64,000 bases of DNA from Alcanivoracaceae bacterium (GCA_029210325.1 JARGPU010000007.1:32439-96438); one strand, 5' to 3'. Shown: positions 32,407-56,328, numbered from the stretch's first letter. Translations and numbers: made by a program. Notes: a model not told the origin generated them from the letters alone.

Positions 32407-32425
32407 TTCTTAGACGGAGAAGCCA

Positions 32426-34437: not shown

Positions 34438-34497
34438 CGAGCAGCTCAATCAAGGACAAACTGCTGTGCAGTTTGCCCGTTAACAAGGGCGTTAAGT
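34432..34497 (+). other. attC-like site 3 (last in array)
   Basis: Starts ACATAACGAGC and ends GGCGTTAAGT (GTTAAGT fits GTTRRRY). About 66 nt. Ends 54 nt before the stop of the convergent GMC oxidoreductase gene. Confidence 0.4.
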
Positions 34498-34550
34498 CCC
34501 CCAGCCTTTTTCCATTCTGGTAGAGCGCCGCCAATAGCGGTGTAATTTTT

Positions 34551-36691: not shown

Positions 36692-37372
36692 GGTCTGATT
36701 CTCACCTGTAGTTGAGTTATGGCTTTCATATTACGCGTACGCGTACGAAAAGGTCAATAGAATAGCCTATGTCCCTGATTCTATGAGATATTTTCATAAA
36801 AGTGGGGCGCAAACATGTGGGGCCAGGTCTTTCATGTTTCGCGAAGGGCCGTGATGGCACGCCTTTCAGAGGTAGGGCGGACATGGCCGTGATCGCTCGG
36901 AGTACCATATTTACGTTGGAAAGACCGGGGGTAATCGAAAGAGTTGCAATCCCGTCATTTCCAGAGCAGGAAATCACTTCTCGTACAACGATATTCACTC
37001 CCAGATTAGAAACAAGCTAAAGCATTGGCCTCCAGAGTACGCTTAGGAATACCTATATATTAATTTTGACCAGTATTCTGATGATGAGCAGGAGCGCTTA
37101 GCTAGAGTTGAGGTGATCAACGAGATGGAGCGTGTAGTAAATGTAGCGATACAGAAGGCCTTTCCCGATGCGAAAGAGGGCTGTCTTCTCAACCCATTCA
37201 AAGGTAATGGATACGTTAAGTATCGGAAAAGGTTAGACGTGAAGGCCTCAGAATTAGCGCGCTCATTGCTCCATAAAACAGTCTGGATATGCCACTCTTT
37301 TTGAAATTCATTGCTGTGATCTGTAGGGTAAGAAAGCCTTGGTTTCAAATTTAGTAGACTGGTTTTCTTTCT

Positions 37373-38806: not shown

Positions 38807-38837
38807 ATACATAATTTCCAGCGCTTCCTGGCCACGG

Positions 38838-39917: not shown

Positions 39918-40080
39918 TATTATATTGCCTTTCGTCGAACCATTCGGGGATTGTCTTGAAATGACCCCCTTGTGTCAATTGCCGACCTGTTGAGCCTTCC
40001 CAGTAAAGGGCAATCATGACAAGCATGAACATGGCCTATGGGTGGCTGATCCTCAGCCATCAACAGACTCGGAGGGTTTT

Positions 40081-40401
40081 ATGGGACGCATGACTTTTAT
40101 CGAACACGACGGCACCCGGCATGAAGTGGAAATCGAGGCGGACAAGTCGTTAATGCAGCACGCAGCCGACAATATGGTGCCCGGTATCGATGCGGACTGC
40201 GGTGGTGAATGCGCCTGTGGCACCTGCCATGTGATCGTTGACCATCAATGGTTTGCCAAGACCGGCGCGATCAACGGCAACGAGAAGCAGATGCTGGAGA
40301 TGACCCCGGAGGGTGCTCCCACATCTCGTCTGGCCTGCCAGATAGAGGTCACCGATGCCCTGGATGGGCTGGTGGTCCATCTGCCCGAATTCCAGATGTA
40401 A
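40081..40401 (+). CDS. [2Fe-2S] ferredoxin, putidaredoxin/adrenodoxin type
   Basis: C-x5-C-x2-C ... C pattern (CGGECACGTCHV ... LACQ). GGAGGG RBS before ATG 40081. Confidence 0.9.
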   Translation: MGRMTFIEHDGTRHEVEIEADKSLMQHAADNMVPGIDADCGGECACGTCHVIVDHQWFAKTGAINGNEKQMLEMTPEGAPTSRLACQIEVTDALDGLVVHLPEFQM

Positions 40402-40413
40402 GGGAGAGACACT

Positions 40414-41802
40414 ATGAGTATTTCAACCCTGGCGATGAATTTAAGTGCCCGTGTGGTGCCGATGCAATGGCAGATCAAAGCGGCGCATCTGGCACAAAAA
40501 ACGCTGGATAGAATCGGCCTGGCTGCGAAGATCCCTGAGTTTGTGGAGTCACCCTTGCCGGATGTGTCCACCTTGGCGATTGAAGATATTGATGTCAGCA
40601 ATCCCTTTCTCTGGCGTCAGGGGTTGTGGGGTTCCTATTTTAAGCGGCTGCGCGACGAGCAGCCCGTGCACTTCCAGAAGAACAGCCCCTTCGGGCCTTT
40701 TTGGTCGGTCACCCGTTTCGACGATATTCTTTTTGTCGACAAGCACCACGAGCTGTTCTCGGCCGAACCAATCATCACTTTGGGTGATCAGCCCGCTGGC
40801 CTGGCGATTGAAACCTTTATCGCCATGGATCCGCCCAAGCACGATAAACAACGTCAGGCGGTTCAAAATGTGGTTGCGCCCAAGAACCTCAAGGAAATGG
40901 AAAGCCTGATTCGACAGCGTACTCAGGAGGTGCTGGATAACTTACCGGTGGACCAGCCATTCGATTGGGTGAGCAGTGTATCCATAGAGTTGACGGCGCG
41001 CATGCTGGCCACATTGCTCGATTTCCCCTACGAGCAGCGGCGCAAGCTGGTGTACTGGTCCGATGTGGCTGCGGCCAGCCCGGAAACCACCGGAGGGCAG
41101 GTGGAGCGTGATGAGTTCTTTCCGGTTGTTGCTGAGGTGGCGCAAGCGTTTTCTCAGCTGTGGCGTGACAAGGCAGCCCGCCAGAATGCTGGAGAAGAGC
41201 CCGGGTTCGACATTATCAGCCTGATGCTGAATAACGAGGACACCAAGGATCTGATCCATCGGCCGATGGAGTTTCTCGGCAATCTGGCATTGCTGATCGT
41301 TGGTGGTAACGATACCACTCGCAACTCTATGACCGGCGGCGTGCTGGCGCTGAACAAGTTCCCGCAGGAATTCGACAAGCTGAAATCGAATCCTGCCCTT
41401 ATTCCGAACATGGTGTCCGAAATTATTCGCTGGCAGACACCGCTGGCTTATATGCGCCGAGTTGCCAAAGTGGATGTGGAGCTAAATGGTGCAACCATCC
41501 GCAAGGGCGACAAAGTGGTGATGTGGTATGCCTCTGGTAATCGCGACGAGCGCGCGATCGATAACCCGGACGATTTCATTATTGATCGCAAAGGCGCGCG
41601 TAATCACCTGTCTTTCGGTTTTGGCGTGCACCGTTGCATGGGTAACCGTCTGGCCGAGATGCAGCTGAGAATTCTGTGGGAAGAGCTGCTGGAGCGATTT
41701 GACCGTATCGAAGTTCAGGGCGAACCAGAATACGTTCAGTCGAACTTCGTCCGCGGTTATACCAGCATGATGGTCAAAGTGAGCAACAAAAACCGGAGCT
41801 GA
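40414..41802 (+). CDS. cytochrome P450, CYP153 family alkane terminal hydroxylase
   Basis: Heme loop FGFGVHRCMGNRLAE and I-helix LLIVGGNDTTRNS. N-terminal region IEDIDVSNPFLWRQGLWGSYFKRLRDEQPVHFQ is typical of CYP153A. Confidence 0.92.
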   Translation: MSISTLAMNLSARVVPMQWQIKAAHLAQKTLDRIGLAAKIPEFVESPLPDVSTLAIEDIDVSNPFLWRQGLWGSYFKRLRDEQPVHFQKNSPFGPFWSVTRFDDILFVDKHHELFSAEPIITLGDQPAGLAIETFIAMDPPKHDKQRQAVQNVVAPKNLKEMESLIRQRTQEVLDNLPVDQPFDWVSSVSIELTARMLATLLDFPYEQRRKLVYWSDVAAASPETTGGQVERDEFFPVVAEVAQAFSQLWRDKAARQNAGEEPGFDIISLMLNNEDTKDLIHRPMEFLGNLALLIVGGNDTTRNSMTGGVLALNKFPQEFDKLKSNPALIPNMVSEIIRWQTPLAYMRRVAKVDVELNGATIRKGDKVVMWYASGNRDERAIDNPDDFIIDRKGARNHLSFGFGVHRCMGNRLAEMQLRILWEELLERFDRIEVQGEPEYVQSNFVRGYTSMMVKVSNKNRS

Positions 41803-41805
41803 GCC

Positions 41806-43068
41806 ATGAGTCATTCACCGTCCCAGCCCGGCGAGAATCAGGTATGCGTGATCATCGGGGCCAGTCATGCGGCGGCCCAGCTCGCCACCAGTCTGCGCCA
41901 GCAAGGCTGGAGCGGGTCCATTCGCATGATTGGCGACGAAGGTGGGCTGCCTTACCAGCGGCCACCATTGTCGAAGGCGTTTCTTTGCGGAGAAAAGGGT
42001 GCCGACAGCCTGATAATTCGACCCAGTGCTTTCTATGAAAAGCATCAGATCGAATTCATCCCGGGTAGAGTGACTGCGATTGATCGGGCGGCCAAGACGC
42101 TGACTCTGGCGGATGGCAGTGAGCAGCACTATGACAAGCTGGCGCTGTGTACCGGCACCAGAGTCATCCGCTTGCCGATTAAGGGCGCAAGCCTTGCCGG
42201 TGTGCACTATCTGCGTACTCTGGCGGACGTTGAAGGCATTCGCCGGGAGCTGCCGGATACCCGTCGTGTGGTCATCATCGGCGGCGGCTATATCGGTCTG
42301 GAAACCGCCGCGTCATTGCGTAAGCAGGGTATTGATGTGGTCGTGCTGGAAATGGCCGAACGGGTATTACAGCGGGTCACTGCGCCGCAAGTTTCCGCCT
42401 TCTATCAACGTATGCACAGCGAAGCCGGCGTAATCATTGAGACCAGCACCATGGTGGCAGCGTTTGACGGTGAGCAACGAGTTGAGCGAGTGCTATGTGC
42501 CGATGGACGTTCTTATGCGGCGGACATGGTGATTGTCGGGATTGGCGTTAGGCCGAATAGTGAGCTTGCCGAAGCTGCCGGGCTTGAGATAGACAACGGC
42601 ATCGTCGTTGATGAGTATTGCCAAACACAGGACCCCGACATCGTTGCAGCCGGCGATTGTGCCAATCAATGGGACCCAGGCTCCGCCCAGCGGCGGCGGC
42701 TGGAATCCGTACCTAACGCGGTGGAGCAGGCGAAAACCGCTGCTGCCACCTTGTGCGGGGAAAAGATCCCGCAGATCAGCTTGCCCTGGTTCTGGTCCGA
42801 TCAATATGACCTTAAACTGCAGATGGCTGGTTTGAATCAGGGCTACGATCAGGTGGTGATTCGCGGTACCGCCGATTCGGGTAGCAGCTTTGCTGCGTTC
42901 TACTTCCAGCAGGGGCAGCTGATCGCCGCTGATTGTGTTAATCGTGCTCCTGAATTTATGCTGGCGAAAAAGTTGCTTGGCCAAAAACAAACTTTCGATC
43001 TAACCCAGCTTGCCGACGAAGCCATTCCAGTTAAACAACTGATGGCGGAGTTGACGGCTTCAGCCTGA
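41806..43068 (+). CDS. FAD-dependent ferredoxin--NAD(P)+ reductase (putidaredoxin reductase-like)
   Basis: VCVIIGASHAAAQLA and VVIIGGGYIGLETAA dinucleotide-binding motifs. 420 aa. Last gene of the P450 operon. Confidence 0.88.
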   Translation: MSHSPSQPGENQVCVIIGASHAAAQLATSLRQQGWSGSIRMIGDEGGLPYQRPPLSKAFLCGEKGADSLIIRPSAFYEKHQIEFIPGRVTAIDRAAKTLTLADGSEQHYDKLALCTGTRVIRLPIKGASLAGVHYLRTLADVEGIRRELPDTRRVVIIGGGYIGLETAASLRKQGIDVVVLEMAERVLQRVTAPQVSAFYQRMHSEAGVIIETSTMVAAFDGEQRVERVLCADGRSYAADMVIVGIGVRPNSELAEAAGLEIDNGIVVDEYCQTQDPDIVAAGDCANQWDPGSAQRRRLESVPNAVEQAKTAAATLCGEKIPQISLPWFWSDQYDLKLQMAGLNQGYDQVVIRGTADSGSSFAAFYFQQGQLIAADCVNRAPEFMLAKKLLGQKQTFDLTQLADEAIPVKQLMAELTASA

Positions 43069-43307
43069 AAGGCTGGGGTGGTGACATGTCAACAAACAGG
43101 AGGGAGTCAGCGAATAGATTGATGTCCTCCAGTCTCAGACCCGGTTTTCGCCTTCCGGCAATGATGCCGCATGCTCGCGACTTCTGCCGCTTTTACTATT
43201 ACAAGCTAATCGAGTCATATTTGGGCATATGCTTTGACAGTAATGCCATTCTCAGGGAGACTTGCTGACTACTGTCTGGCAATTCGCACCTAAATCTTGG
43301 GAATGCT

Positions 43308-44207: not shown

Positions 44208-45640
44208 CTAGCGCCGCATTAGCGTGCCATGCGACGGCGCAGCATCACTGCGCCTAGCATCAACATGAGCACGGCCGGTGCGGTGCTACCGCCGCTGCTG
44301 CCGCCACCAGTGGACACCTTGCCCATGACGATCTTGCTGCCTGCGCCATCATCGGCCGCATAGACTCTGGGCCAGAATAGCTTGCCATCGTCCGCCATGG
44401 CAGCGGGGTAGGCCTTGTTCCAGCCATTGAAGCTCACCGCATTACTGGTCAAGACATTAGAGTCACTCGCTTTGCCCGAACTGCTGACGGATACATGGCT
44501 CATGCCACCACGCATGCCGTGGAACACTTGCACGGTGTTGTTGCTTGCCATGAAGGCCTGTGCATATTTGAACGGGCCAAGCTCGGAATCATCAACGACT
44601 TTGATTGCCGTCATGTCCGCAGCACTGCCGTCTTGATCATCAAGGGAGGGATCCAGCTTGGCGTAGAACAAGGTGCCTCCACTAGCGCTGACCGTGTTAT
44701 AGACATCCCAAATCGGGGCATTGCGCTTGTCGGCCCAGACCACAGCCACCTTGTCCTTGCTATCCGCCATGATGCTGTAATGCGCTGCATGCGGGGCATC
44801 GCCCACATCTGACTCCGAACCCTGATCCGTTGACAGGTTAGTGGTGATCACGTTGGTAGCGTCAATCAGCACGCTGCCATCGGTGCCATCCAGCATGCCG
44901 TAGGAAACCGTGCAAAGATTACCGGTAGTACTGTTGCAATCCTGAAACACAATATGGACATTGCCGTCGCTATCTAAGGCAATAGGGTTGGTGCCATGAC
45001 CGTTGTGATTTGCATCGGTAAACGGCCTCACCGGTGCAATAACTTCCGTCAACGTAGAGTCATATTTGGTAAACAGGCCATCGTGGCTCCAGACGTAAAC
45101 ATTGTCGGCATCATCCAACTCGATAAACGGATGCTTGAAGTCCGGTCCAGCATCGACTTCCGCCTCTTCCGTGATGGAGGCTAGAACCGGCGAAGTGCCG
45201 TCCTGCGGAGCAAGGGAGGGATCGAGCTTGATCAGATACAAGCTGCCCGCTTGGTTGTCGGTATTACGGTAGTCCCTAAAGCCCCAAGACACGTACACCT
45301 TGTCGTCCGATCCCACCTCGATATCTGCAGTGGTGACAGAGTCACCGGCAGCGTCAGTGGTCAGTTTGACCTCATCGATCAGCACGGTGCCATTCTTTGA
45401 GACCATCATGTAGCCGACGTTGGCATCTGTATCCCCCCGCATTTGTTCTTCCGCACTCCCGATGCGGTAGACGATGTGATAGTTGCCAGCCGAGTCTTTA
45501 TCGACGCGGGGACGATCCCGCGCAAACGCGGTGTCTGCGGAAATTTCCGTGTATGCCAGCTCTGCCGCGGATACTGGCAATGCGGACAGTGACATGATTG
45601 CAGCGGCGAGGCTTGAAGCCAGCAGCCCTGCACTACTTTT
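44208..45640. repeat. dispersed direct repeat, copy A (pairs with 47000-48430)
   Basis: 44208-45432 appears identical to 47000-48234 (offset 2792). The two copies then differ by a 3-nt C-run indel and scattered substitutions. Weaker homology extends 3' through the terminator. Confidence 0.85.
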
Positions 45641-45658
45641 GGTTGATGTTGTTGTCAT
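44219..45658 (-). CDS. secreted repeat protein with GlyGly-CTERM-like sorting tail, paralogue A
   Basis: Signal peptide ...AAIMSLSALPVSA|AELAY. C-terminus STGGGSSGGSTAPAVLMLMLGAVMLRRRMAR (Gly-Gly, TM helix, Arg cluster). ATG 45658 with an AAAGGGGA RBS. No known catalytic domain recognised. Confidence 0.7.
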   Translation of the reverse strand: MTTTSTKSSAGLLASSLAAAIMSLSALPVSAAELAYTEISADTAFARDRPRVDKDSAGNYHIVYRIGSAEEQMRGDTDANVGYMMVSKNGTVLIDEVKLTTDAAGDSVTTADIEVGSDDKVYVSWGFRDYRNTDNQAGSLYLIKLDPSLAPQDGTSPVLASITEEAEVDAGPDFKHPFIELDDADNVYVWSHDGLFTKYDSTLTEVIAPVRPFTDANHNGHGTNPIALDSDGNVHIVFQDCNSTTGNLCTVSYGMLDGTDGSVLIDATNVITTNLSTDQGSESDVGDAPHAAHYSIMADSKDKVAVVWADKRNAPIWDVYNTVSASGGTLFYAKLDPSLDDQDGSAADMTAIKVVDDSELGPFKYAQAFMASNNTVQVFHGMRGGMSHVSVSSSGKASDSNVLTSNAVSFNGWNKAYPAAMADDGKLFWPRVYAADDGAGSKIVMGKVSTGGGSSGGSTAPAVLMLMLGAVMLRRRMAR

Positions 45659-45841
45659 GGTTTTCCCCTTTGAATTGATCCCAATAACGGTGTTCCACTT
45701 AACCCTGTGAAAACGGACATCAACAGCAAAAGGCCAGATGGCTCTACGGGGCATGGGCGCTACTTCAGAGTAATAGAATCGGGTCTTTTTACAACCCCAA
45801 GCATGGTTTGGAGCTACCTAACTGTAGCTATGAGCCTCGGC

Positions 45842-46333
45842 CTATTGCTCAGGGGCAGGGTCCATCTGCTTAAGCATGCTGGGCTTCCAACTCTTGTCCT
45901 CAGCCCCCCCGGGGATGGCTCGACCGCCTCGACGCGTGTTTTGCTGTTGCTGCAAGATACGCTGCTGCCTGGCATCCTGCTCCGCCAAGGATGCCGGGTC
46001 CATGTTGCCGTCCGGCAAAACGTCAATGCTTGCAAGATGATCATTGCCTTCGCCGTCACGCCGCCAGCCGAGGACAATATTCAGGCCTTCCTGGCGGGCT
46101 ATCTGATCCATTGCCCGCTGCAGGGGCATATTTTTAATGGATATGGATACCAAGCGCTCCACGTTTGAATCTACCTTGATGGTGGCGCCTGTCTGCTGGG
46201 CAACATCGGTCAGTACAGTGGTCAGGGACTGCTGCGCTACTTCTATTGCCACGCTGTCGCCGTTAACTGTCACCTGCGCATGGGCGACAGAAGCCGTTAG
46301 CAGCATGGCAGACAAAATCAGGGGTAATTTCAT
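45842..46333 (-). CDS. periplasmic STN-domain protein
   Basis: Signal peptide MKLPLILSAMLLTASVAHA|Q. SLTTVLTDVAQQTGATIKVDSNVERLVSISIKNMPLQRAMDQIARQEGL fits the secretin/TonB short N-terminal (STN) domain pattern. Gln/Arg-rich tail. Confidence 0.5.
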   Translation of the reverse strand: MKLPLILSAMLLTASVAHAQVTVNGDSVAIEVAQQSLTTVLTDVAQQTGATIKVDSNVERLVSISIKNMPLQRAMDQIARQEGLNIVLGWRRDGEGNDHLASIDVLPDGNMDPASLAEQDARQQRILQQQQNTRRGGRAIPGGAEDKSWKPSMLKQMDPAPEQ

Positions 46334-46362: not shown

Positions 46363-46890
46363 TTACTCCGCTTGCTCAGAGGAGCTGAAGCGAATCTCCT
46401 GGATTTCCCGGGTAACGGTGATGTAAGCACCGCCCTGCTGCCTGACCAGCTTGATCAAGCCTTTGCCGGTCAGTACCGCCAAGCCGGGCTGCTCTGCCAG
46501 CTGGGCTTGATCCAGTGCAAGCTCAGGGCCGGTGCAAGGCACGAGGGTCACCGTATCGGCGTTATACTGCGCCATCATGCCGGTCAGGTCTGTGGCCGGA
46601 CGAGGGTTCTCGCCCAAGTCGATATCGTGACTTTCAAACCCCTTGAAGAACTCCTTCGGTGGGAAGTACTCCACACCCTGTCCTGTCACCGGCACCACGT
46701 TCAAGTGCGAGCCGCACTTTCCCAACTCCAGACCCGGCCATACCCGATCATCACTGAATTTTTGTCCCTGCTTGCCGCCATCACCAGAATGGGCCTCGGC
46801 GGCAGGTGTGTCAGTCTCGGCTGGATCCGAGCATGCTGTCAGCAGCCAGGCTGATAGCAGCAGCGCTAATAGTTGAAGTGGGCGACGCAT
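46363..46890 (-). CDS. lipoprotein, unknown function
   Basis: Lipobox LLTAC after MRRPLQLLALLLSAW (start ATG 46890). Three further Cys in the mature part. No family recognised. Confidence 0.6.
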   Translation of the reverse strand: MRRPLQLLALLLSAWLLTACSDPAETDTPAAEAHSGDGGKQGQKFSDDRVWPGLELGKCGSHLNVVPVTGQGVEYFPPKEFFKGFESHDIDLGENPRPATDLTGMMAQYNADTVTLVPCTGPELALDQAQLAEQPGLAVLTGKGLIKLVRQQGGAYITVTREIQEIRFSSSEQAE

Positions 46891-46945
46891 ACATACTTCC
46901 CTGATTAAGATAGAAAAGGTGCCTGCCATGCAGACTACCTGATAT

Positions 46946-46999: not shown

Positions 47000-48430
47000 C
47001 TAGCGCCGCATTAGCGTGCCATGCGACGGCGCAGCATCACTGCGCCTAGCATCAACATGAGCACGGCCGGTGCGGTGCTACCGCCGCTGCTGCCGCCACC
47101 AGTGGACACCTTGCCCATGACGATCTTGCTGCCTGCGCCATCATCGGCCGCATAGACTCTGGGCCAGAATAGCTTGCCATCGTCCGCCATGGCAGCGGGG
47201 TAGGCCTTGTTCCAGCCATTGAAGCTCACCGCATTACTGGTCAAGACATTAGAGTCACTCGCTTTGCCCGAACTGCTGACGGATACATGGCTCATGCCAC
47301 CACGCATGCCGTGGAACACTTGCACGGTGTTGTTGCTTGCCATGAAGGCCTGTGCATATTTGAACGGGCCAAGCTCGGAATCATCAACGACTTTGATTGC
47401 CGTCATGTCCGCAGCACTGCCGTCTTGATCATCAAGGGAGGGATCCAGCTTGGCGTAGAACAAGGTGCCTCCACTAGCGCTGACCGTGTTATAGACATCC
47501 CAAATCGGGGCATTGCGCTTGTCGGCCCAGACCACAGCCACCTTGTCCTTGCTATCCGCCATGATGCTGTAATGCGCTGCATGCGGGGCATCGCCCACAT
47601 CTGACTCCGAACCCTGATCCGTTGACAGGTTAGTGGTGATCACGTTGGTAGCGTCAATCAGCACGCTGCCATCGGTGCCATCCAGCATGCCGTAGGAAAC
47701 CGTGCAAAGATTACCGGTAGTACTGTTGCAATCCTGAAACACAATATGGACATTGCCGTCGCTATCTAAGGCAATAGGGTTGGTGCCATGACCGTTGTGA
47801 TTTGCATCGGTAAACGGCCTCACCGGTGCAATAACTTCCGTCAACGTAGAGTCATATTTGGTAAACAGGCCATCGTGGCTCCAGACGTAAACATTGTCGG
47901 CATCATCCAACTCGATAAACGGATGCTTGAAGTCCGGTCCAGCATCGACTTCCGCCTCTTCCGTGATGGAGGCTAGAACCGGCGAAGTGCCGTCCTGCGG
48001 AGCAAGGGAGGGATCGAGCTTGATCAGATACAAGCTGCCCGCTTGGTTGTCGGTATTACGGTAGTCCCTAAAGCCCCAAGACACGTACACCTTGTCGTCC
48101 GATCCCACCTCGATATCTGCAGTGGTGACAGAGTCACCGGCAGCGTCAGTGGTCAGTTTGACCTCATCGATCAGCACGGTGCCATTCTTTGAGACCATCA
48201 TGTAGCCGACGTTGGCATCTGTATCCCGCATTTGTTCTTCCGCACTCCCGATGCGGTAGACGATGTGATAGTTGCCATCCGAGTCTTTATCGACGCGGGG
48301 GCGATCCCGCGCGAACGCGGTGTCTGCGGAAATTTCGGTGTATGCCAACTCCGCCGCGGATACCGGCAGTGCAGACAGTGACATGATCGCAGCAGCCAGA
48401 CTGGCTAGTAGCGGTCCTGCACTACGCTTG
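47000..48430. repeat. dispersed direct repeat, copy B
   Basis: See copy A. Confidence 0.85.
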
Positions 48431-48447
48431 ATGATAGAGTTCCCCAT
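47011..48447 (-). CDS. secreted repeat protein with GlyGly-CTERM-like sorting tail, paralogue B
   Basis: Identical to paralogue A from residue ~75 to the C-terminus. It differs in the signal-peptide N-region (MGNSIIKRSAGPLL), one Gly deletion and one Ala/Asp change. ATG 48447 with a GGAAGGAGAAGG RBS. Confidence 0.7.
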   Translation of the reverse strand: MGNSIIKRSAGPLLASLAAAIMSLSALPVSAAELAYTEISADTAFARDRPRVDKDSDGNYHIVYRIGSAEEQMRDTDANVGYMMVSKNGTVLIDEVKLTTDAAGDSVTTADIEVGSDDKVYVSWGFRDYRNTDNQAGSLYLIKLDPSLAPQDGTSPVLASITEEAEVDAGPDFKHPFIELDDADNVYVWSHDGLFTKYDSTLTEVIAPVRPFTDANHNGHGTNPIALDSDGNVHIVFQDCNSTTGNLCTVSYGMLDGTDGSVLIDATNVITTNLSTDQGSESDVGDAPHAAHYSIMADSKDKVAVVWADKRNAPIWDVYNTVSASGGTLFYAKLDPSLDDQDGSAADMTAIKVVDDSELGPFKYAQAFMASNNTVQVFHGMRGGMSHVSVSSSGKASDSNVLTSNAVSFNGWNKAYPAAMADDGKLFWPRVYAADDGAGSKIVMGKVSTGGGSSGGSTAPAVLMLMLGAVMLRRRMAR

Positions 48448-48757
48448 ATCCTTCTCCTTCCTTATAACCCCAGATAATTTCACCCTGACGCACCGTGAAA
48501 CGAACACTGATCGCATTCCTTTGCCGGATTAGAGGGGATGAGCCTGATAACACCTTAGCCTGATAGGCAGATTTTGCAAGCACGCGTGCTGTATAGACGC
48601 CTTCTAATGAGAGTGATTTTTGTTTGTAAGCTTTTGGCGAGTTGTGCGCTCTCCGCAATGGTAAACAATCAGTACCTGTGGTTTTTGTTTGTGCTATTTT
48701 CTCTTAGCGCCCATATTTAGCCGCAATAAACACCCAGCGTGGACCTTGAGGACACTA

Positions 48758-49993
48758 ATGACGGCCGGTAATAACCGCAGCACTCTTGCCAAGGTCTACT
48801 ATCTTCTCGGCTTGGCCATAAGCCTGTTCCTGATCGCCGAGCCCATGCTGCTGGTGGGGCTATTTCTGCTGCAGCTGTCTATGTGGTTTCGTTTTAAGCT
48901 GCCCGTGTCGGGGGTGGCTCACATTGCGCGTAAATTACGACTGTTTTTCCTGATTATTTTTATTACCTACATGCTCACTGGTAGCGGTGAGGGCACCGAT
49001 CACTGGCTGGAAGTCCCGGTCAGCTGGCTGCCGGACCTTAGCCTGAGTGGGGCGACTCTGGCCCTGTTGATGTGCCTGCGAGTGATGACCCTGGTGCTGG
49101 CGAGCACCTGGCTTCAGCAAACATCCCCTCCCAGAGCCTTGGTCGTCGGATTACGGCACCTGCGTATTCCAGAGAGTGTTGCCTTGACCGTGGACGCGAC
49201 GCTGGCTCTGCTTGGCGGTCAGGACAGAGGTGGTCAAGGCCATGGCAAGGGCGGCGGCAAGGGCCGGGGTAAAGGGGATGGTGAGGGGCGTGGCGACGGC
49301 GGTATAAGCTGGGCTGACATCCGTGCCGGCCGTCTGGCTGCTGTGGATGAGCTGCTGCAGGGCAAGTTTCGCCAAAGCAGGAGGTGGCTGGCGGAGCGCT
49401 ACCCTGAGCTGTCGCGCGAACGTCTTCATGATCTGACGGTGATTCTGGGCGTCAGCCTCACCGTGATGGGGCTCAAGGTACTGCAAATTCTGCCTGGGGT
49501 GCCAATCGCATCCGGGCACAAGAACATGCTGATTGTGCCGCTGCTATTGTTCGCAGCCAAAGCGACTTATATGCGCTTTGGCGCCTTGGCTGCCGGCACC
49601 ACCACCGGCATAGTTTCTTTTCTGATGGGGTATGGCAAGTTCGGCATTCTGGAAATCGCCCATTTCGCCGTGCCTGGCTTGCTTGCAGATATGCTGATGC
49701 CTGTTGCGCGGGCCACCAGTCGTGGCGGCAAGTTGCTGCAGTTTGCGTTAATTGGTGCTGCTATCGGTGCCGGCCGTTTTGCCGCCAACTTGCTCGTTAT
49801 TGTGCTTGCCGGCGCCCCACAGTTAGCTTTTGTGCTGTTTTTGCCGATGTTGGCTTCACAGCTTCTGTTCGGCACTTTAAGCTGCTTCGTCAGTGTGCTG
49901 CTGGTAAATCGCAATTTCACTGATGCACCCGAAGATCATCCAGACACGCGGCCACTGGCCGCTGGTAACAGTCGCAAGTCAGAAGAGTCATAA
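48758..49993 (+). CDS. two-module polytopic membrane protein (CbiQ/EcfT-like N-half, Gly/Lys/Arg-rich linker, unknown C-half)
   Basis: The N-half TM pattern and LVVGLRHLRIPESVALTVDATLALL loosely resemble ECF T-components. Linker is GGQDRGGQGHGKGGGKGRGKGDGEGRGDGG. The C-half has ~5-6 TM helices. 17 nt upstream of the mosA-like gene. Confidence 0.5.
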   Translation: MTAGNNRSTLAKVYYLLGLAISLFLIAEPMLLVGLFLLQLSMWFRFKLPVSGVAHIARKLRLFFLIIFITYMLTGSGEGTDHWLEVPVSWLPDLSLSGATLALLMCLRVMTLVLASTWLQQTSPPRALVVGLRHLRIPESVALTVDATLALLGGQDRGGQGHGKGGGKGRGKGDGEGRGDGGISWADIRAGRLAAVDELLQGKFRQSRRWLAERYPELSRERLHDLTVILGVSLTVMGLKVLQILPGVPIASGHKNMLIVPLLLFAAKATYMRFGALAAGTTTGIVSFLMGYGKFGILEIAHFAVPGLLADMLMPVARATSRGGKLLQFALIGAAIGAGRFAANLLVIVLAGAPQLAFVLFLPMLASQLLFGTLSCFVSVLLVNRNFTDAPEDHPDTRPLAAGNSRKSEES

Positions 49994-50010
49994 TCCAGAG
50001 GGAATAAAAG

Positions 50011-50850
50011 ATGTCAGAACTGGTGAAGGGGGACGGAAGGACCCATATTTCTAGCGGACTAATGAGAGAAAGTCTTGTTAGTCGGCGCCTTCTCAAGGAG
50101 ACCGACTCCGCTTCCGTGAAGAGCATGGTTCCCGATGTGAACATGATCTGTGTTGGCGGGCGTAGCATTATGGACCGTGGCGCCGAAGCCATTATGCCGC
50201 TTGTAGATGCTATCGCTAAACTGAATAGCAACTATCGTATGGTTATTGGTGTCGGTGGTGGCGCCCGCGCCCGACACACTTACTCTATCGGTATTGATCT
50301 GGGTCTGCCGATTGGTGGTTTAGCCCGTATCGTCGGCGGGGTTGAAGAGAACAATCGCGACATTCTGCAATTTCTGCTGGCACCTCATGGCGGTATTACC
50401 TTCGTTAAGGATCACTTTCAGGATCTGCAGCTGTTTCTCAAGAACGGCATGATTCCAGTGTGCATTGGCCAGCCGCCATACCATTTCTGGGAGCCGCCGT
50501 CGTTAGAAGCAGGCCAGCTGCCGGATAACGGCCCGGATACCGGACTGTTCCTGATGGCAGAAGTAATGGGTGCAATGAGCGTCATTTATGTCAAGGACGT
50601 TGATGGCATCTATACCGAAGATCCGCAGAAGAATCCCAACGCTGAGCTGATCCGTGAGATCACCGCAAAAGAGTTGCTGGAAATGGATTTGCCCGACATG
50701 CCGATCGAGCGTGAACTGCTGCGCACTCTGGAAAATGCCAGAACGGTTCACCAGATTCAGGTGATTAACGGCCTCAAAATAGACAATCTGGAACGGGCAT
50801 TGAATGGTGAGCTGGTCGGCACCATCGTCAAGTCCAGCCGCGCGAAGTGA
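50011..50850 (+). CDS. mosA: molybdenum storage protein alpha-like subunit (amino-acid-kinase fold)
   Basis: ICVGGRSIMDRGAEAIMPLVDAI ... GVGGGARARHTYSIGIDLGLP ... PPYHFWEPP ... VDGIYTEDP ... VQVINGL ... GELVGTIV parallels A. vinelandii MosA as I recall it ([48 protein letters not shown]). Confidence 0.7.
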   Translation: MSELVKGDGRTHISSGLMRESLVSRRLLKETDSASVKSMVPDVNMICVGGRSIMDRGAEAIMPLVDAIAKLNSNYRMVIGVGGGARARHTYSIGIDLGLPIGGLARIVGGVEENNRDILQFLLAPHGGITFVKDHFQDLQLFLKNGMIPVCIGQPPYHFWEPPSLEAGQLPDNGPDTGLFLMAEVMGAMSVIYVKDVDGIYTEDPQKNPNAELIREITAKELLEMDLPDMPIERELLRTLENARTVHQIQVINGLKIDNLERALNGELVGTIVKSSRAK

Positions 50851-50869
50851 TCTAGGGAGCAGTAATAAA

Positions 50870-51694
50870 ATGAAAAAAGACGGAAAAATCTGGATCGACG
50901 GCATGGATAATGCCCTGTCCGACCAATCTCTTTCTGGTCACGCTATCCGTGAACAGCTGGCCTCTCGCGATACGGTCACGGTGCTGCCGGATGTATGGGT
51001 CATCAAAATCGGCGGTCAAAGCATTATGGATCGTGGCCGCGCGGCGGTATACCCGATTCTTGAGGAGCTGGTTGCGGCAAAAAAGAATGGTGTGAACTTT
51101 ATTCTCGCCGCCGGTGGTGGTACCCGTGCTCGTCATGTTTATTCCCTTGGCCTGGATCTGAATATGCCTACCGGTATGTTGGCGCGTCTCGGTGCCAGTG
51201 TGCCGGTGCAAAACGCACGCATGCTGCAGATTCTCACCGCCAAGCACGGCGGCATCATGTGCTATCCGGAAGAGCTCGAGAAGCTGCCGTTCTTCCTCAA
51301 TGCTGGCTGCCTGCCGATCACCTCCGGCATGCCGCCGAATGAGTTTTGGGAGAAGTCACAGGCAGAGGGGTTGATTCCCGCTAACCGTACTGATGCGGGC
51401 GTTTACCTGATGGCCGAGTTCCTTGGTGCCAAGGGCGTGCTCTATATCAAGGATGAAGACGGACTGTACACCGATGATCCGAAGAAGAACCCGGATGCTG
51501 AGTTCATTCCTGAAACCACCGCCTCAGAGCTGCTCAATAATGGTCAGGACGACCTGATTGTGGAGCGCGTTGTACTGGAGTACATGATGCGTGGTGATCA
51601 CATCAAGAAACTGCAAATCGTCAACGGATTGAAGCAAGGACAAATCACTGCAGCCCTTAACGGCGAAGACGTGGGCACCATTATCCGCGCCTGA
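50870..51694 (+). CDS. mosB: molybdenum storage protein beta-like subunit (amino-acid-kinase fold)
   Basis: VIKIGGQSIMDRGRAAVYPILEELVAAKKN ... GGGTRARHVYSLGLDLNMPTGMLARLGASV ... NRTDAGVYLMAEFLGAK ... IKDEDGLYTDDPKKNPDAEFIPE ... LQIVNGL ... GEDVGTII closely parallels A. vinelandii MosB as I recall it. Confidence 0.78.
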   Translation: MKKDGKIWIDGMDNALSDQSLSGHAIREQLASRDTVTVLPDVWVIKIGGQSIMDRGRAAVYPILEELVAAKKNGVNFILAAGGGTRARHVYSLGLDLNMPTGMLARLGASVPVQNARMLQILTAKHGGIMCYPEELEKLPFFLNAGCLPITSGMPPNEFWEKSQAEGLIPANRTDAGVYLMAEFLGAKGVLYIKDEDGLYTDDPKKNPDAEFIPETTASELLNNGQDDLIVERVVLEYMMRGDHIKKLQIVNGLKQGQITAALNGEDVGTIIRA

Positions 51695-51726: not shown

Positions 51727-52266
51727 CTAATCTTGGCTCCGACGTTGGCCGCCTTGCTTTAATGCCACTTGGCTGACATTGCGCATCAAGGTTTGCTCCA
51801 TCCCATCTGAAAGCTCGATCAACTTAAACGCACCGCGGCGGTTAGCGCCAATAAAGAACTGTCTGGTGTCCTGCTGCACTTTATCTACTGGGAAACGAGC
51901 TACGTCGCCCTCGCAAGTGATCACTTCGACCACAGTAATATCCGGGGCCATGCCTGCCAGTACGAGCAAGTTCACTCCTTGGGTGCTGGCGCGATGACCG
52001 GCATCAAGCGGCTGTACTTCGGGCATGTCCTCAAATGCTTGTATTTGTTTTTGCCATAGCAACTGCTGCCCGGCGTACAGCGAAAGAGAGTCGCTACAGT
52101 CAGCCTGTGGCTCGCCTTTGTGCGCGGCATCTTCTTGTTTCGGGTTGGATTGCTGTGCAGGCGTCTGAGCTGGCTTGATGGGGCTAACGCTGTTCCCGGC
52201 TAGCCAGATATAAACGCCAGCGGCAACCAGCACTGCGCCCAGCAATACCGCTAATTTAGTTTTCAT
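51727..52266 (-). CDS. membrane-anchored/periplasmic hypothetical protein, last gene of the mod operon
   Basis: N-terminal anchor MKTKLAVLLGAVLVAAGVYIWLA. 31 nt downstream of modC on the same strand. No family recognised. Confidence 0.45.
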   Translation of the reverse strand: MKTKLAVLLGAVLVAAGVYIWLAGNSVSPIKPAQTPAQQSNPKQEDAAHKGEPQADCSDSLSLYAGQQLLWQKQIQAFEDMPEVQPLDAGHRASTQGVNLLVLAGMAPDITVVEVITCEGDVARFPVDKVQQDTRQFFIGANRRGAFKLIELSDGMEQTLMRNVSQVALKQGGQRRSQD

Positions 52267-52297: not shown

Positions 52298-53416
52298 TCA
52301 TGCTTCTGCATTGGCGTTATCGATAGCCGTCTGCTCGGCGGAATTCTTTACCGCTACACTTTTTATCTGGGCAAATAGAGATTGCCCCTGGATCAGGTTT
52401 AGAGCCTCTGCTGACTTCAATGTTACGCGGGCCATTAGCTTTGCCTCACCCACGCGCAGCTGGACCAGTACATATCCACCAGCTTCGGCCTGTCGGCTCT
52501 CCACTACCGCTGGCAGAATATTCAGAATGCTGCTCGAGCGCGGACGCTCCCGGCACAAACTCACGTCACTCGCCATGATGCGTAAACGCAGGGGGCAACT
52601 GTGATCACCGTGACGGCCCGGGACAACCACTTCTCCACCAGCAAACTGTAGTCTGGACAGCTGATAATGTGGGTCATAATCAAGCACGCGAACATCCAGT
52701 ACGGTGCTAGCTTCGCCACCACCCAGTATGGGTAGATCGGTACGCATCAGCATGTCGTGTAGCCTGCCTTGACCGAGCACTCGACCAGACTGCATCACCA
52801 CCAAGTGATCACATAGGCGTGTCATTTCATCCAGACTGTGGCTGACATACAGCATTGGCACTTGGAGATTGGCGTGCAAGCGGTCGAGGAATGGCATGAT
52901 TTCTTGCTTGCGCGCGGCGTCGAGATTGGCAAGCGGCTCGTCCATCAATACCAAAGCCGGGTAGCGCAACAGCGCGCGGGCAATCGACGCTCGCTGTTGC
53001 TCGCCGCCGGAAAGTTGGGCTGGCTTCCGGTCAAGCAAATGACCGATGCCCAGCATGTCAATAATCTGCTCCGGCGAGCTTAGCTCTGGCAAAGGCGCAG
53101 AGCGACGGCGACCGTAATTGAGATTACGGGCGACTGTCATGTGTGGGAACAATCGCGCATCCTGAAATACATAGCCCACAGGCCGTTGCCAAGGCGACAC
53201 GAAATTCTCTGAGTCCTGCCATAGTTGGCCATTAAATCCGACGCTTCCACGGGCGTCACGTTCGAGTCCAGCAATACAGCGAAGCAGGGTGGTTTTGCCG
53301 CAGCCGGAGGCACCAAAGATTCCGGTGACACCATGGGAAGGCACCTTGATGTCGACATCCAGAGTAAAGTCTGGACGACTGAGCGCGGCCGTTACATGTC
53401 CGGCATCAGTGTTCAT
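52298..53416 (-). CDS. modC: molybdate ABC transporter ATP-binding protein with C-terminal TOBE/Mop domain
   Basis: Walker A GASGCGKTT, signature LSGGEQQRASIARAL, Walker B LVLMDEP. C-terminal TOBE domain (ILNILPAVVES ... LMARVTLKS ... LFAQIKSVAV). The ATG at 53416 overlaps the modB stop. Confidence 0.88.
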   Translation of the reverse strand: MNTDAGHVTAALSRPDFTLDVDIKVPSHGVTGIFGASGCGKTTLLRCIAGLERDARGSVGFNGQLWQDSENFVSPWQRPVGYVFQDARLFPHMTVARNLNYGRRRSAPLPELSSPEQIIDMLGIGHLLDRKPAQLSGGEQQRASIARALLRYPALVLMDEPLANLDAARKQEIMPFLDRLHANLQVPMLYVSHSLDEMTRLCDHLVVMQSGRVLGQGRLHDMLMRTDLPILGGGEASTVLDVRVLDYDPHYQLSRLQFAGGEVVVPGRHGDHSCPLRLRIMASDVSLCRERPRSSSILNILPAVVESRQAEAGGYVLVQLRVGEAKLMARVTLKSAEALNLIQGQSLFAQIKSVAVKNSAEQTAIDNANAEA

Positions 53417-54104
53417 GGCGTAACCTGCCATTGATGAAATAGAGCGCAAACATGCAGGTGAAACTGAACGCCAACAGCAGGCCAGACAAGACGTGCGCCT
53501 GCGCATACTCCAGTGCTTCAACATGGTCGTAAATGGCAATGGAAATTACCCGGGTTTGCCCGGGAATATTGCCGCCAACCATTAGCACGACGCCAAATTC
53601 GCCTAGCGTATGGGCAAAGCCCATGATGGCTGCGGTCAGAAAGCCGCGGGTGCTGAGTGGCAGAATTACCGTAAAAAAAACGTCCAGAGGCCGAGCGCCA
53701 AGTGTTTCAGCTGCTTCAACGAAGCCGCGACCAATACTCTCGAAGGCGTTCTGCAGCGGCTGAATAACGAACGGCATGCTGTAGAGAATCGAAGCAATTA
53801 CCAGGCCACCAAAACTGAACGTCAGTGTGCTTTCGGTCAGCTTCACCCAATAGCTGCCTACCAAACCATTAGGCCCGAGCAGAATCAGCAGATAGAAACC
53901 GAGCACCGTAGGAGGTAGCACTATGGGAAGGGCCACCATGGCTTCAATAACTGTTTTTGCGTGAGATCGGGTGCGAGATAGCCAGAATGCCAGCGGTGTG
54001 CCAAACAGGATAAGGATCGCCGTGCTGATAAGGCCAAGCTTGACCGAGAGCCAAAGAGGGCCGAGGCCAGGCATATTTGCAGTCCAAGCGTTGAAAAGCT
54101 CCAT
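53406..54104 (-). CDS. modB: molybdate ABC transporter permease
   Basis: CysTW-type permease with EAA loop (VEAAETLGARPLDVFFTVILPL). 232 aa. Confidence 0.9.
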   Translation of the reverse strand: MELFNAWTANMPGLGPLWLSVKLGLISTAILILFGTPLAFWLSRTRSHAKTVIEAMVALPIVLPPTVLGFYLLILLGPNGLVGSYWVKLTESTLTFSFGGLVIASILYSMPFVIQPLQNAFESIGRGFVEAAETLGARPLDVFFTVILPLSTRGFLTAAIMGFAHTLGEFGVVLMVGGNIPGQTRVISIAIYDHVEALEYAQAHVLSGLLLAFSFTCMFALYFINGRLRHEH

Positions 54105-54107: not shown

Positions 54108-54866
54108 TTATTCAAGGCCATATCCGTGAGCTAATATAATGGCTTGTGCTTTCTCGCCGGCAAGAAATTCCATAAATGCCTTGGCGGCTGGATTATTTGC
54201 CGACCTCTTCAATAGCACCACCTGCTGTTCTATTTTGCTATGCAGTGCCTGCGGCACCTGCCAATGGCATGTGCCCTCAGGAATATTTGGCAAATTCAGC
54301 TGTGCTGCTGCAATCAGACCCATGCTGGCGCTGCCGCTGGCGACAAAATGAAGCGCCTGAGAGATGGATTCACCGGTTACGATGCTCTCGGTCAGCTGGT
54401 TCTTGTCGAGCCCGATACTGGCAAGAACTTCCTCCGCAGCGACACCGTAAGGCGCGGCTTTTGGATTGGCGATGGCCAGTTTGGCAAAATTTTTCGCTTT
54501 CAGCTCCGCCTCACAGTCCTTGCCTTGGTAGCGCTCATCAACCGACCAGAGAACCAGTCTGCCGGTGGCATAGGTACGGCGGGATTCAGGTACCACCAGT
54601 CCGTTTGACTCAAGCAGCGCAGGCCGCTCAATGTCTGCGGAAAGAAAGATGTCAAAGGGTGCACCATGACTGATCTGGGCAAATAACTTACCGCTTGAGG
54701 AAACGCTAAAGAGAACTTGATGCCCGGCTTCCTGCTCAAATGCTTCTGCGATCTCTCGCGCCGCTTGAGTGAAGTTACTGGCAACGGCCACCGTGACTTG
54801 TGTGGCTGCCGTTGCTGCCTGTGCCACAAGCAGCAGAGCGCCCACAAGCCAGCTGGATCTGGTCAT
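54108..54866 (-). CDS. modA: molybdate ABC transporter periplasmic binding protein
   Basis: Signal peptide followed by VAVASNFTQAAREIAEAFEQE ... FSVSSSGKLFAQISHGAPFDIFLSAD, the typical ModA N-lobe. Confidence 0.88.
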   Translation of the reverse strand: MTRSSWLVGALLLVAQAATAATQVTVAVASNFTQAAREIAEAFEQEAGHQVLFSVSSSGKLFAQISHGAPFDIFLSADIERPALLESNGLVVPESRRTYATGRLVLWSVDERYQGKDCEAELKAKNFAKLAIANPKAAPYGVAAEEVLASIGLDKNQLTESIVTGESISQALHFVASGSASMGLIAAAQLNLPNIPEGTCHWQVPQALHSKIEQQVVLLKRSANNPAAKAFMEFLAGEKAQAIILAHGYGLE

Positions 54867-55078
54867 TCCCTGTCCTCAAAAAACCGTCTAGATGGGCTAC
54901 TATCGCGAAAATGGTTCAGTGGCACAAGGCAGGCCTCAGGTGGTCGTATAGCCCGTCATCTACGCTTCCTCCCGTGCTAACCCTGACCTGTGACAATTCG
55001 CTCCCCCTCTGTTGAACTAGAGTAGTCTCATATTCAGGGTTGCTCGCTCGCCCATCAGTTACAGACGTTGAGGTCGAA

Positions 55079-56023
55079 ATGGAGTTTAAGGACTACTACG
55101 CATTGCTTGGTGTGGAGCCAGAGGCCGATGAGGCCACCATCAAGACGGCATATCGTCGCCTGGCCCGCAAATATCACCCGGACATCAGTCAGGAGAAAGA
55201 CGCCGAGGCCAGGTTCAAAGAGGTAGCGGAAGCCTGGCAGGTGCTGAAGGACCCGGACAAGCGCGCCGATTACGACCAATTGCGCGCCATGCGCAGCCAG
55301 CAGGGCGGGCGTGGCCCGTTCGAGGCACCTCCTGGCTGGCAGCCATCCGATGGTGGCGGCTTTGATCCCTCTGATGCGGGGTTCTCGGATTTTTTTGAGT
55401 CCCTGTTTTCTGGTGCCCGTCAGGGCGGTCGGGGTGGATCAGCGTCAGGGCGGCGCGGGCGGGATGTGGAAATAGATCTGCCGGTATTTCTTGAGGATAC
55501 GGTTAGTTCTGAAACCAAGCCGATTTCTTTCCGATTGCCTGAATACAACCAGTATGGCGAGCTGATTGGCGAAGCCACGAAGAGCCTCAACGTAAAGATT
55601 CCCGCAGGCGTTACCGACGGTGAGCGCATTCGCCTTAAGGGGCAGGGCACTGCAGGTGTTGGCGATATGCCAGCGGGGGATGTTTATTTACGCATTCGCC
55701 TTGTGCCCCATCCGCTGTTCGACGTTGAGGGACATAACCTGATTGTTACCGTGCCGCTGGCGCCATGGGAGGCGGCACTGGGCACCAAGGTCGAAGTGCC
55801 AACGCTAACCACGCCGATCAATTTGAGCATTCCCGCCCATAGCCAGAATGGCAAGAAGCTACGTATTGCTGGCAAGGGCTTGCCCAGCAAGGCGGGGCAG
55901 GGCGATTTGTTTGTGCTGTTGAAGGTGGTGATGCCGCCGGCGACCAGCGATGACATCAATCAGTTGTGGGAGCAGCTTGCCGAGAAGGCCAGCTTTGATC
56001 CCCGTGCACAATGGAGTCGATAG
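55079..56023 (+). CDS. cbpA: curved-DNA-binding protein, DnaJ homologue
   Basis: J-domain [32 protein letters not shown] and DnaJ C-terminal domains, but no Zn-finger region. Followed by cbpM. Confidence 0.88.
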
Positions 56024-56025
56024 TG

Positions 56026-56328
56026 ATGGTCTCCGAAGTGAAAGTGACAGTTTGTAGCACTGAGCTCTATCAGCTGGCGGCGATTTCGGATCAGGATTTA
56101 GCCGAGCTGGTTGGTCATGGCATTGCCCAGCCACACGACCAGCAGGCTGTCGAATGGCAGTTTGATGAAGCAGCGGTGGCACAGATAACTCGTGCCGTTC
56201 GTCTGCGCAGGGAGCTGCAGGTAGATTGGGCCGGGATTGCGTTGGCGCTGGAGCTGCTCAATGAACTGGAAGGCTTGCGCCGGGAAAATGACGCGCTGCG
56301 GCGACGACTGGAGCGGCTCGAAGAGTAG
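56026..56328 (+). CDS. cbpM: chaperone modulatory protein CbpM
   Basis: AVRLRRELQVDWAGIALALELLNELEGLRRENDALRRRLERL parallels E. coli CbpM ([24 protein letters not shown]...LKQENRLLRQRL). Start is ATG 56026 (or 56011). Confidence 0.75.
   Translation: MVSEVKVTVCSTELYQLAAISDQDLAELVGHGIAQPHDQQAVEWQFDEAAVAQITRAVRLRRELQVDWAGIALALELLNELEGLRRENDALRRRLERLEE

Follow-up and report, generated by a model that had tools for sequence, protein, structure and literature searches.

A MoSto-family gene pair and an ECF-like two-module membrane protein gene form a conserved trio beside modABC in an Alcanivoracaceae genome

Three closely spaced plus-strand genes at positions 48,758-51,694 of a 64,000-nucleotide stretch of DNA from an Alcanivoracaceae bacterium (GCA_029210325.1 JARGPU010000007.1:32439-96438; the whole stretch is referred to below as the window) encode a polytopic membrane protein and two paralogous amino-acid-kinase-fold proteins, here named KinA and KinB. 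KinA and KinB belong to the family of the molybdenum storage protein (MoSto, composed of MosA or alpha and MosB or beta subunits in Azotobacter vinelandii), and the membrane protein joins a truncated half resembling EcfT, the T component in transporters of the energy-coupling factor (ECF) type, to a second half with a predicted S-component-like fold. The trio recurs far beyond this genome, in some lineages with the membrane protein and KinA fused in a single chain, and the molybdate importer genes modABC are its recurrent neighbors. On balance, we lean towards the three proteins forming one membrane-associated machine for the ATP-driven storage or transfer of molybdate, possibly of tungstate.

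The kinase-fold pair and its relation to MoSto

The three genes are arranged as follows.

48758-49993, plus strand: gene 1, membrane protein, ATG to TAA, 411 amino acids (aa)
50011-50850, plus strand: gene 2, KinA, 279 aa, MoSto-family subunit with a putative alpha-like role
50870-51694, plus strand: gene 3, KinB, ATG start, 274 aa, MoSto beta-like subunit

The gap between gene 1 and KinA is 17 nt and contains a GAGGGA ribosome-binding site, while that between KinA and KinB is 19 nt and contains AGGGAG; the open reading frames (ORFs) and these sites bear out the close spacing described in the first-pass annotation of the window, which was made from the sequence alone. The ATG of the membrane protein is backed by a 411-aa homologue from Alcanivorax sp. 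1008 (100% coverage) and that of KinB by a 274-aa homologue of 99% identity, with the full-length Alcanivorax sp. 1008 homologues of the operon proteins being 96-99% identical and having the same starts, which makes the source of the window a close relative of this strain.

MoSto is thought to derive from UMP kinase, and both KinA and KinB match the Pfam family AA_kinase (PF00696; E = 2e-22 and 6e-24 for the two proteins). Searches of the PDB separate the two possibilities clearly: KinB scores 240 bits against MoSto beta (E = 3e-70), 167 bits against MoSto alpha and 39 bits against the best UMP kinase, and KinA scores 179, 165 and 36 bits, respectively (MoSto E = 1e-51), with UMP kinases reaching 33-39 bits (E = 1e-8) at ~23% identity to KinA and KinB. 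As the PDB scores favor MoSto and no kinase of known organic substrate comes near its NCBIfam cut-off for either protein, both are assigned to the MoSto family. Identification of either protein as an ordinary UMP, aspartate or isopentenyl-phosphate kinase was considered and rejected, the matches lying far under the family cut-offs.

Identity to the canonical clade averages 45% for KinB to MosB and 37.5% for KinA to MosA, and the window KinB is 47% identical to A. vinelandii MosB. A search with A. vinelandii MosB retrieved a tight, ~90% identical clade from Azotobacter-like, Rhodopseudomonas, Methylomonas, Azospirillum, Magnetospirillum and Methylosinus genomes, which we take to be diazotrophs. 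In a tree of 166 subunits, constructed by neighbor-joining only and rooted with Escherichia coli PyrH (sequence checked against PDB 2bne), the KinA clade is monophyletic with 98% bootstrap support and the KinB clade with 100%, both apart from the PyrH outgroup. The gene order also differs, with beta preceding alpha in 3/3 canonical mosBA loci and the beta-like gene lying second here. An adjacent paralogous kinase pair is present in all 88 non-truncated related loci. By sequence, KinA and KinB thus appear as a separate lineage of the MoSto family, not as demonstrable orthologues of MosA and MosB. The first-pass annotation had matched the pair to MosA and MosB almost block by block, and named grouping with UMP kinases or other amino-acid kinases as an outcome that would overturn the idea; set beside MoSto and PyrH, both proteins grouped with MoSto, in the PDB scores and in the tree, and what does not survive is the block-by-block orthology, KinA joining MosA in 0/100 replicates.

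Met149 of the beta subunit is said to be the gate past which molybdate is pushed following a kinase-like attack on ATP, and the alpha arm reportedly closes over the beta ATP site; His140 of alpha is presumably the residue behind the three symmetry-related histidines of the threefold-axis cluster. Published structural work gives Glu129 and His156 as covalent ligands of the Mo8 cluster, and names the ligands of the threefold-axis cluster as three symmetry-related histidines only (PMC4504029). Residue frequencies were compiled over 80 relatives of each subunit, with A. vinelandii numbering fixed by PDB alignments (2ogx_A), and are listed below.

Kinase lysine (beta 42, alpha 45, PyrH 15), catalytic family-wide: KinB, K in 100%; KinA, S, G or A (Cys47 in the window)
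Beta Met149, reported gate: KinB, M in 100%; KinA, V, Q or I
Beta Arg168, ATP/molybdate site: KinB, R in 100%; KinA, G in 93%
Alpha His156, Mo8 ligand: KinB, G, E or H; KinA, H in 100%
Alpha Glu129, Mo8 ligand: KinB, L, Y or M; KinA, Q, I or V (Val132 in the window)
Alpha His140, presumed threefold-axis ligand: KinB, Y, F or I; KinA, Y, F or W (Phe142 in the window)

The equivalent of beta Asp170 is likewise 100% conserved in the 80 KinB relatives, and the site of the window KinB comprises K46, M154, R173 and D175 together with a conserved GGGTRARH loop (MoSto pattern GxGxGTRARH). KinA has a conserved N-terminal arm, GDGRTHISSGLMRESL (clade consensus R-T-H-I-x-S-x-L-M-R-E-S-L), which resembles the MoSto alpha arm K-H-V-I-S-P-L-A-R-Q-T-L. 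KinB is therefore predicted to be the ATP-hydrolyzing subunit, and the picture that these residues suggest is of a fully equipped beta-like engine paired with a non-catalytic, alpha-like KinA whose cluster-binding chemistry would be unlike that of MosA. The comparison of MoSto residues that the first-pass annotation had proposed accordingly divides between the subunits, the beta-type site being kept in KinB and the kinase lysine, Glu129 and His140 being absent from KinA. The invariant Met149 and His156 nevertheless argue that a pump-into-cage logic is retained.

A membrane protein with EcfT-like and S-component-like halves

The product of gene 1 is divided into three parts.

49214-49309, plus strand (residues 153-184): Gly/Lys/Arg-rich cytoplasmic linker, GGQDRGGQGHGKGGGKGRGKGDGEGRGDGGIS, with a predicted local distance difference test score (pLDDT) <50
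48758-49213, plus strand (residues 1-152): N-half, truncated EcfT/CbiQ-like module
49310-49924, plus strand (residues 185-389): C-half, amphipathic helix and six-helix bundle

This build is the norm for the family, as nearly all of the 94 homologues of the membrane protein are full-length, at 360-457 aa. The AlphaFold2 model of the whole protein (pLDDT 84, predicted template modeling score 0.82) contains 10 predicted transmembrane helices, in the order four transmembrane helices, two short cytoplasmic helices, a disordered stretch at 153-184, an amphipathic helix and six transmembrane helices. Lysine and arginine number 22 in the inside loops and 1 in the outside loops, indicating that both termini and the linker are cytoplasmic (N-in, C-in). 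The linker is present in 49/49 homologues, where it spans 23-52 residues and contains on average 40% glycine, 21% basic and 8% acidic residues.

The N-half of the window protein matches Pfam CbiQ just below threshold (24.2 bits, cut-off 25; residues 12-145 against profile positions 13-142 of 216), and the same family matches 47/49 homologues, with a best E of 8e-13. A profile of the membrane-protein family matches Lactobacillus brevis EcfT (4hzu_T, 4huq_T) with E = 1e-4, profile positions 8-153 aligning with EcfT residues 20-160 of 266. The alignment stops where VDATLAL pairs with VDTLAMM (EcfT residue 160), immediately before the Ala-Arg-Gly region. These alignments indicate that the N-half is homologous to EcfT, for the N-terminal two-thirds only. 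A possible remnant of a coupling motif, 'IRxG', lies past the linker, where Arg189 is at least 90% conserved. The closest homologue is named 'ECF transporter transmembrane component T' by NCBI, while the NCBIfam model ECF_T_CbiQ gives the window protein 35 bits against a cut-off of 111.8. Neither the operon nor the loci inspected contain EcfA or EcfA' genes, and the only ABC (ATP-binding cassette) ATPase that recurs nearby is ModC.

The C-half is the most conserved part of the protein and contains the invariant polar residues H254, K255, N256, K294, E299, D311, R340, N344 and Q368. It matches no Pfam family, either alone at E up to 10 or in 49 homologues at E up to 1, and these 49 members likewise place it in no known S-component sequence family of Pfam. 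A HMMER scan of 1.84 billion representative proteins with the C-half as query returned 196 relatives, nearly all of them C-terminal in ~400-aa proteins, so that this half is almost confined to the two-module build. Modeled alone (pLDDT 86), the C-half has as its top 8 Foldseek matches in the PDB exclusively S-components (ThiT, PanT, RibU and FolT), with probabilities of 0.97-1.00, template modeling scores (by target) of 0.50-0.62 and root mean square deviations of 4.5-6.3 Å; the whole protein gives only weak, mixed matches, with EcfT and RibU among unrelated membrane proteins. The C-half is thus predicted to have an ECF S-component-like fold. An AxxxA motif in helix 1 of S-components contacts EcfT (PMC11109136), and in the 49 homologues the corresponding positions are A24/G15/S5/T3 at 231 and A29/T17/V3 at 235, with G231 and T235 in the window protein. 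With the topology predicted above, the invariant basic and polar residues would for the most part be placed in the outer half of the bundle, the region in which S-components bind their substrates.

The tripartite build seen by the first-pass annotation, a CbiQ/EcfT-like N-half, a Gly/Lys/Arg linker and a polytopic C-half, is upheld, the C-half having six transmembrane helices, and the prediction of topology that it called for yields 10 helices with both termini in the cytoplasm. Its description of the C-half as unassigned still applies to sequence families but no longer to the fold, for which Foldseek points to S-components.

Co-conservation, gene fusions and the molybdate importer

A scan of the GTDB, with one genome per species, listed 599 pattern matches, of which at least 542 were confirmed as KinB relatives, taking in the MoSto family as a whole. 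The loci examined are those of the best 80 relatives by similarity to the window KinB, which are not an unbiased sample, and the canonical MoSto clade is represented by three loci. Among the KinB-seeded loci with ≥61% identity, the membrane gene lies directly upstream in 16/16 that have enough upstream sequence, and between 53 and 61% identity it does so in 35 of the 56 that could be assessed. Seeding with the membrane protein gives the order membrane gene, kinase, kinase in 6/6 loci, from Verrucomicrobiae, Mariprofundaceae, an alphaproteobacterium (two contigs), Methylococcales and an unassigned metagenome contig. The lineage with the membrane gene extends through Proteobacteria, Myxococcota, Planctomycetota, Nitrospirota, Verrucomicrobiota, Eremiobacterota and Acidobacteriota, and most of its hosts are not known diazotrophs. 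As the trio recurs in dozens of genomes and many phyla, the adjacency of its genes is not due to chance.

The membrane protein and KinA are also found as single-ORF fusions, followed by a separate KinB, in three loci (L050 5005-6990, L052 4954-6981 and L090 2524-4722). Those in L050 and L052, from two Eremiobacterota (Vulcanimicrobiaceae), are 661-676 aa long and join the membrane protein straight onto the DGRTHISS arm of KinA; that in L090, an unassigned metagenome contig, is a 732-aa protein with the second kinase gene next to it. The co-conservation of the membrane gene with the kinase pair, on which the first-pass annotation had staked the association, is therefore strong in both search directions and extends to these fusions.

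In the window, the trio converges on a mod operon (orf179-modC-modB-modA), and 32 nt separate the stop codon of KinB from that of orf179, as the first-pass annotation had stated.

51727-52266, minus strand: orf179, last gene of the convergent mod operon
52298-53416, minus strand: modC, ATPase with TOBE domain (TIGR02142, 425 bits, cut-off 285; Pfam ABC_tran and TOBE)
53406-54104, minus strand: modB, permease (TIGR02141, 238 bits, cut-off 183)
54108-54866, minus strand: modA, periplasmic molybdate-binding protein (TIGR01256, 208 bits, cut-off 62.5)

ModA, ModB and ModC each score above their NCBIfam equivalog cut-offs. A modA gene (TIGR01256) lies within 7 kb in 21/80 loci, in divergent, convergent and co-directional arrangements, and the modA near the trio exceeds the TIGR01256 cut-off in 10/10 tested loci from distant phyla. 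None of these 21 loci is known to lack the membrane gene, L082 being cut off upstream and so not open to judgment.

Separately, an 855-aa metagenome protein (P0432, L089 1-2656) carries ModC (ABC_tran and TOBE) fused to the CbiQ-like and S-like halves. The fusion is known from a single 2.6-kb contig and may be a frameshift or an assembly artefact; if real, it would be a physical tie between the membrane protein and the molybdate importer of the ABC type.

The modC ORF as listed (52298-53539) has 413 aa from a TTG start and a 134-nt overlap with modB; its family match begins at residue 56 and homologues are ~368 aa long (with a 368-aa match in L006), so the start is probably the ATG at 53416 (or at 53431). 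The orf179 product has an N-terminal hydrophobic anchor or signal and no match in Pfam or NCBIfam, and its relatives among the loci compared are limited to two Alcanivoracaceae loci (88% and 47%) and, weakly, the Mariprofundaceae locus L002 (24%), which puts it outside the conserved core of the system. An Rfam scan of the whole window returned zero matches, and hence no molybdenum cofactor riboswitch or other known RNA element is present in it. Between 48.4 and 52.4 kb, a scan for promoters and terminators showed promoter-like sites to be no commoner than in shuffled sequences, with no convincing site in the 5' region or in the 32-nt convergent gap.

The ~27 kb annotated around the locus contain no molybdenum enzyme or molybdenum cofactor gene; they encode a P450 and its reductase, an AraC regulator, Nramp-like and DnaJ-like proteins, a histidine kinase, isocitrate dehydrogenase and MgtC. 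The DnaJ/CbpA-like gene (55040-56328, plus strand), with a small gene downstream, adjoins modA; a DnaJ-like gene is also near modABC in the Verrucomicrobiae locus (L001 917-1870), which may be chance. Upstream of the trio is a near-identical gene pair (44219-45754, minus strand, 511 aa, and 47011-48516, minus strand, 501 aa; repeat spacing 2792 nt), with two small genes (45842-46333 and 46363-46929) between the copies. At their C-termini, the proteins carry a Gly/Ser-rich stretch followed by a hydrophobic helix and RRR, and by sequence these ends resemble a GlyGly-CTERM-type sorting signal; the 501-aa protein, the sole copy scanned, matched no Pfam family. Further upstream (region 32000-43100), the GC content falls to 0.49-0.53 at 32-38 kb, from ~0.57-0.59 on its upstream side. 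This region includes the Nramp-like gene (37373-38806), after which come the AraC regulator, cytochrome P450 and ferredoxin-reductase-type flavoprotein at 38838-43068, which fit an alkane-oxidizing Alcanivorax.

Interpretation and comparison with known systems

In the reading that we favor, by a modest balance of the evidence, KinA and KinB would presumably form an alternating hetero-oligomer like the (alpha-beta)3 MoSto complex, with KinB acting as the ATP-using 'molybdate kinase/pump' subunit and KinA as a non-catalytic partner that lays its N-terminal arm over the KinB site. In the membrane protein, a scaffold half of the EcfT type and a substrate-binding half of the S-component type would be combined in a single chain, which would dock the kinase complex at the cytoplasmic face through its C-terminus and the basic, Gly-rich loop. 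The S-like half would most likely pass the oxyanion between a periplasm-facing pocket and the KinB site, and this would link uptake, often through a neighboring ModABC, directly with sequestration driven by ATP. What the analysis shows is the family membership, the conserved residues, the co-conservation, the fusions, the similarity of fold and the linkage to modABC. The complex itself, its substrate, the direction of transfer and a polyoxometalate storage cage are all conditional parts of this scheme, as is the suggestion of the first-pass annotation that the membrane protein may be a channel feeding the cage.

Several observations weigh against this scheme. The neighbor-joining bootstraps that bear on subunit correspondence are low, at 54% for KinA with KinB, 32% for beta with KinB and 0/100 for alpha with KinA, and of the three residues that bind clusters covalently in MosA, KinA does not conserve Glu129 and His140, so that the chemistry of the cage may be different or missing. 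In the EcfT-like half, the Gly/Lys/Arg linker stands in place of the Ala-Arg-Gly coupling region, and the Foldseek matches to S-components carry weak E-values of 0.1-0.5. ModABC already provides uptake, and a second translocation path is not obviously needed. Moreover, the kinase pair occurs with no membrane gene within 7 kb in a set of loci, mostly a Kofleriaceae subclade, that also have no modABC (L023, L025-L033, L036, L037, L041, L044, L045, L048, L069, L073, L076 and L083; in L023, six ORFs flanking the pair match no Pfam family), and 3/3 canonical mosBA loci have neither the membrane gene nor modABC nearby. The Kofleriaceae loci are nested in the tree, so their state looks like secondary loss or relocation; together with the canonical loci, they imply that the kinases can work without the membrane protein.

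A more far-reaching version, which we put forward only tentatively, is that the membrane protein is an ECF-type T-S single-chain translocator in which a MoSto-type kinase-fold oligomer replaces the ABC ATPases. Periplasmic molybdate or tungstate would then be delivered directly to the 'molybdate kinase' site, from which it would be pumped into a cage docked at the membrane, or through it; if true, this would be the first transporter energized by an amino-acid-kinase-fold ATPase, and a missing link in how the cage is fed. Alternatively, the trio could be a new primary transporter, an ECF-type translocator with KinA/KinB as its motor, that imports or exports the oxyanion while nothing is stored. 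The presence of both ECF membrane modules in an operon that has no EcfA genes, the missing coupling-helix arginine motifs for ABC ATPases, the loss of the cluster ligands Glu129 and His140 and the fusion of KinA, in three loci, to the membrane protein's C-terminal end, in the manner of many transporter domains, all suit such a transporter. We nonetheless think it unlikely, because KinB keeps Met149 and other residues reportedly tied to pumping into the cage, His156 is 100% conserved in KinA, a second importer would be redundant with the high-affinity ModABC that is often adjacent, and one subclade retains the kinases without the membrane gene.

Conversely, the membrane protein may move nothing and serve as a pure anchor or regulator, a degenerate ECF relic that tethers the storage complex by ModBC or gates its loading or release. 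A truncated EcfT-like half without coupling motifs and a disordered, basic linker would suit a tether, and the one ModC-membrane protein fusion suggests proximity to the ABC importer; however, that fusion rests on a single 2.6-kb contig, and the strongest conservation is of charged and polar residues inside the S-like bundle, as is typical of a binding site or pathway, which leaves the anchor distinctly improbable in our view. Known S-components bind vitamins and cofactor precursors (PMC11109136) and amino-acid-kinase-fold enzymes phosphorylate small molecules, so the S-like half might instead import a vitamin-like compound that KinA and KinB trap by phosphorylation, their likeness to MoSto reflecting no more than shared UMP-kinase ancestry. 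With KinA and KinB scoring 130-200 bits higher to MoSto than to any organic-substrate kinase, the MoSto-specific Met149 invariant in KinB, the catalytic lysine missing from KinA and modABC as the only recurrent neighbor, there is very little probability left for this route. Finally, the NCBI label of the closest homologue would be consistent with an ordinary cobalt or other ECF T component that happens to lie beside a MoSto-like pair, but the ECF_T_CbiQ score is far under the cut-off, and conservation of the trio across many phyla, together with the gene fusions, effectively refutes unrelated neighbors. A cobalt ECF system was also considered and rejected, no CbiM, CbiN, CbiO or EcfA genes being present in the operon.

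Returning to the reading of the trio as one storage or transfer machine, it shares with A. vinelandii MoSto (PDB 2OGX, 4F6T, 6GU5) an adjacent pair of paralogous amino-acid-kinase-fold genes, of which MoSto subunits are by a wide margin the best solved relatives, the beta residues in KinB, His156 and the alpha-like arm in KinA, and a link to molybdate, here through modABC. Unlike MoSto, it has a dedicated membrane gene, a reversed gene order, 37-45% identity to the canonical subunits and a KinA that has lost the lysine, Glu129 and His140. Its likeness to ECF transporters lies in the EcfT-homologous N-half, the predicted six-helix S-component fold and possibly a small-xxx-small motif at the AxxxA position of helix 1, but T and S are here in one chain, EcfA/A' genes are absent, the partners are kinase-fold proteins, and the EcfT part ends before the Ala-Arg-Gly motifs and runs into a basic, Gly-rich loop. 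UMP kinase PyrH has the same fold (PF00696), whereas the window proteins are a heteromeric pair that does not reach the UMP-kinase equivalog cut-off. ModABC, with the ModE/Mop-type molbindins, deals with the same element and adjoins the trio in the window and in roughly one in four related loci; it is, however, a classical type I ABC importer with no homology to the trio, save for the one possible ModC fusion. The trio is thus MoSto-like on the cytoplasmic side and ECF-like in the membrane, yet departs from both systems in defining features.

In the literature, MoSto has figured as a soluble protein nearly unique to Azotobacter, and a 2019 study describes it as without homologues. Our literature search, which left subscription journals largely outside its reach, found no link of MoSto to ECF, CbiQ, S-component or other membrane proteins, and a survey of S-component folds mentions neither T-S fusions nor molybdenum (PMC11109136). 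The genes of the trio are named 'ECF transporter T component', 'uridine kinase' and 'hypothetical protein' in databases, although JGI labels many KinB relatives 'molybdenum storage protein', and the present finding corrects this systematic misannotation as an ECF T component with a uridine kinase or hypothetical protein.

The locus is part of a widespread lineage beside canonical MoSto. If its three proteins do form one complex, they would provide a concrete and testable way for a metal-oxyanion cage to receive its load at the membrane, and would extend ECF-type architecture beyond ABC motors. Such a complex would also suggest that molybdenum or tungsten buffering is common in bacteria that use nitrate reductase, formate dehydrogenase and similar enzymes, not nitrogenase.

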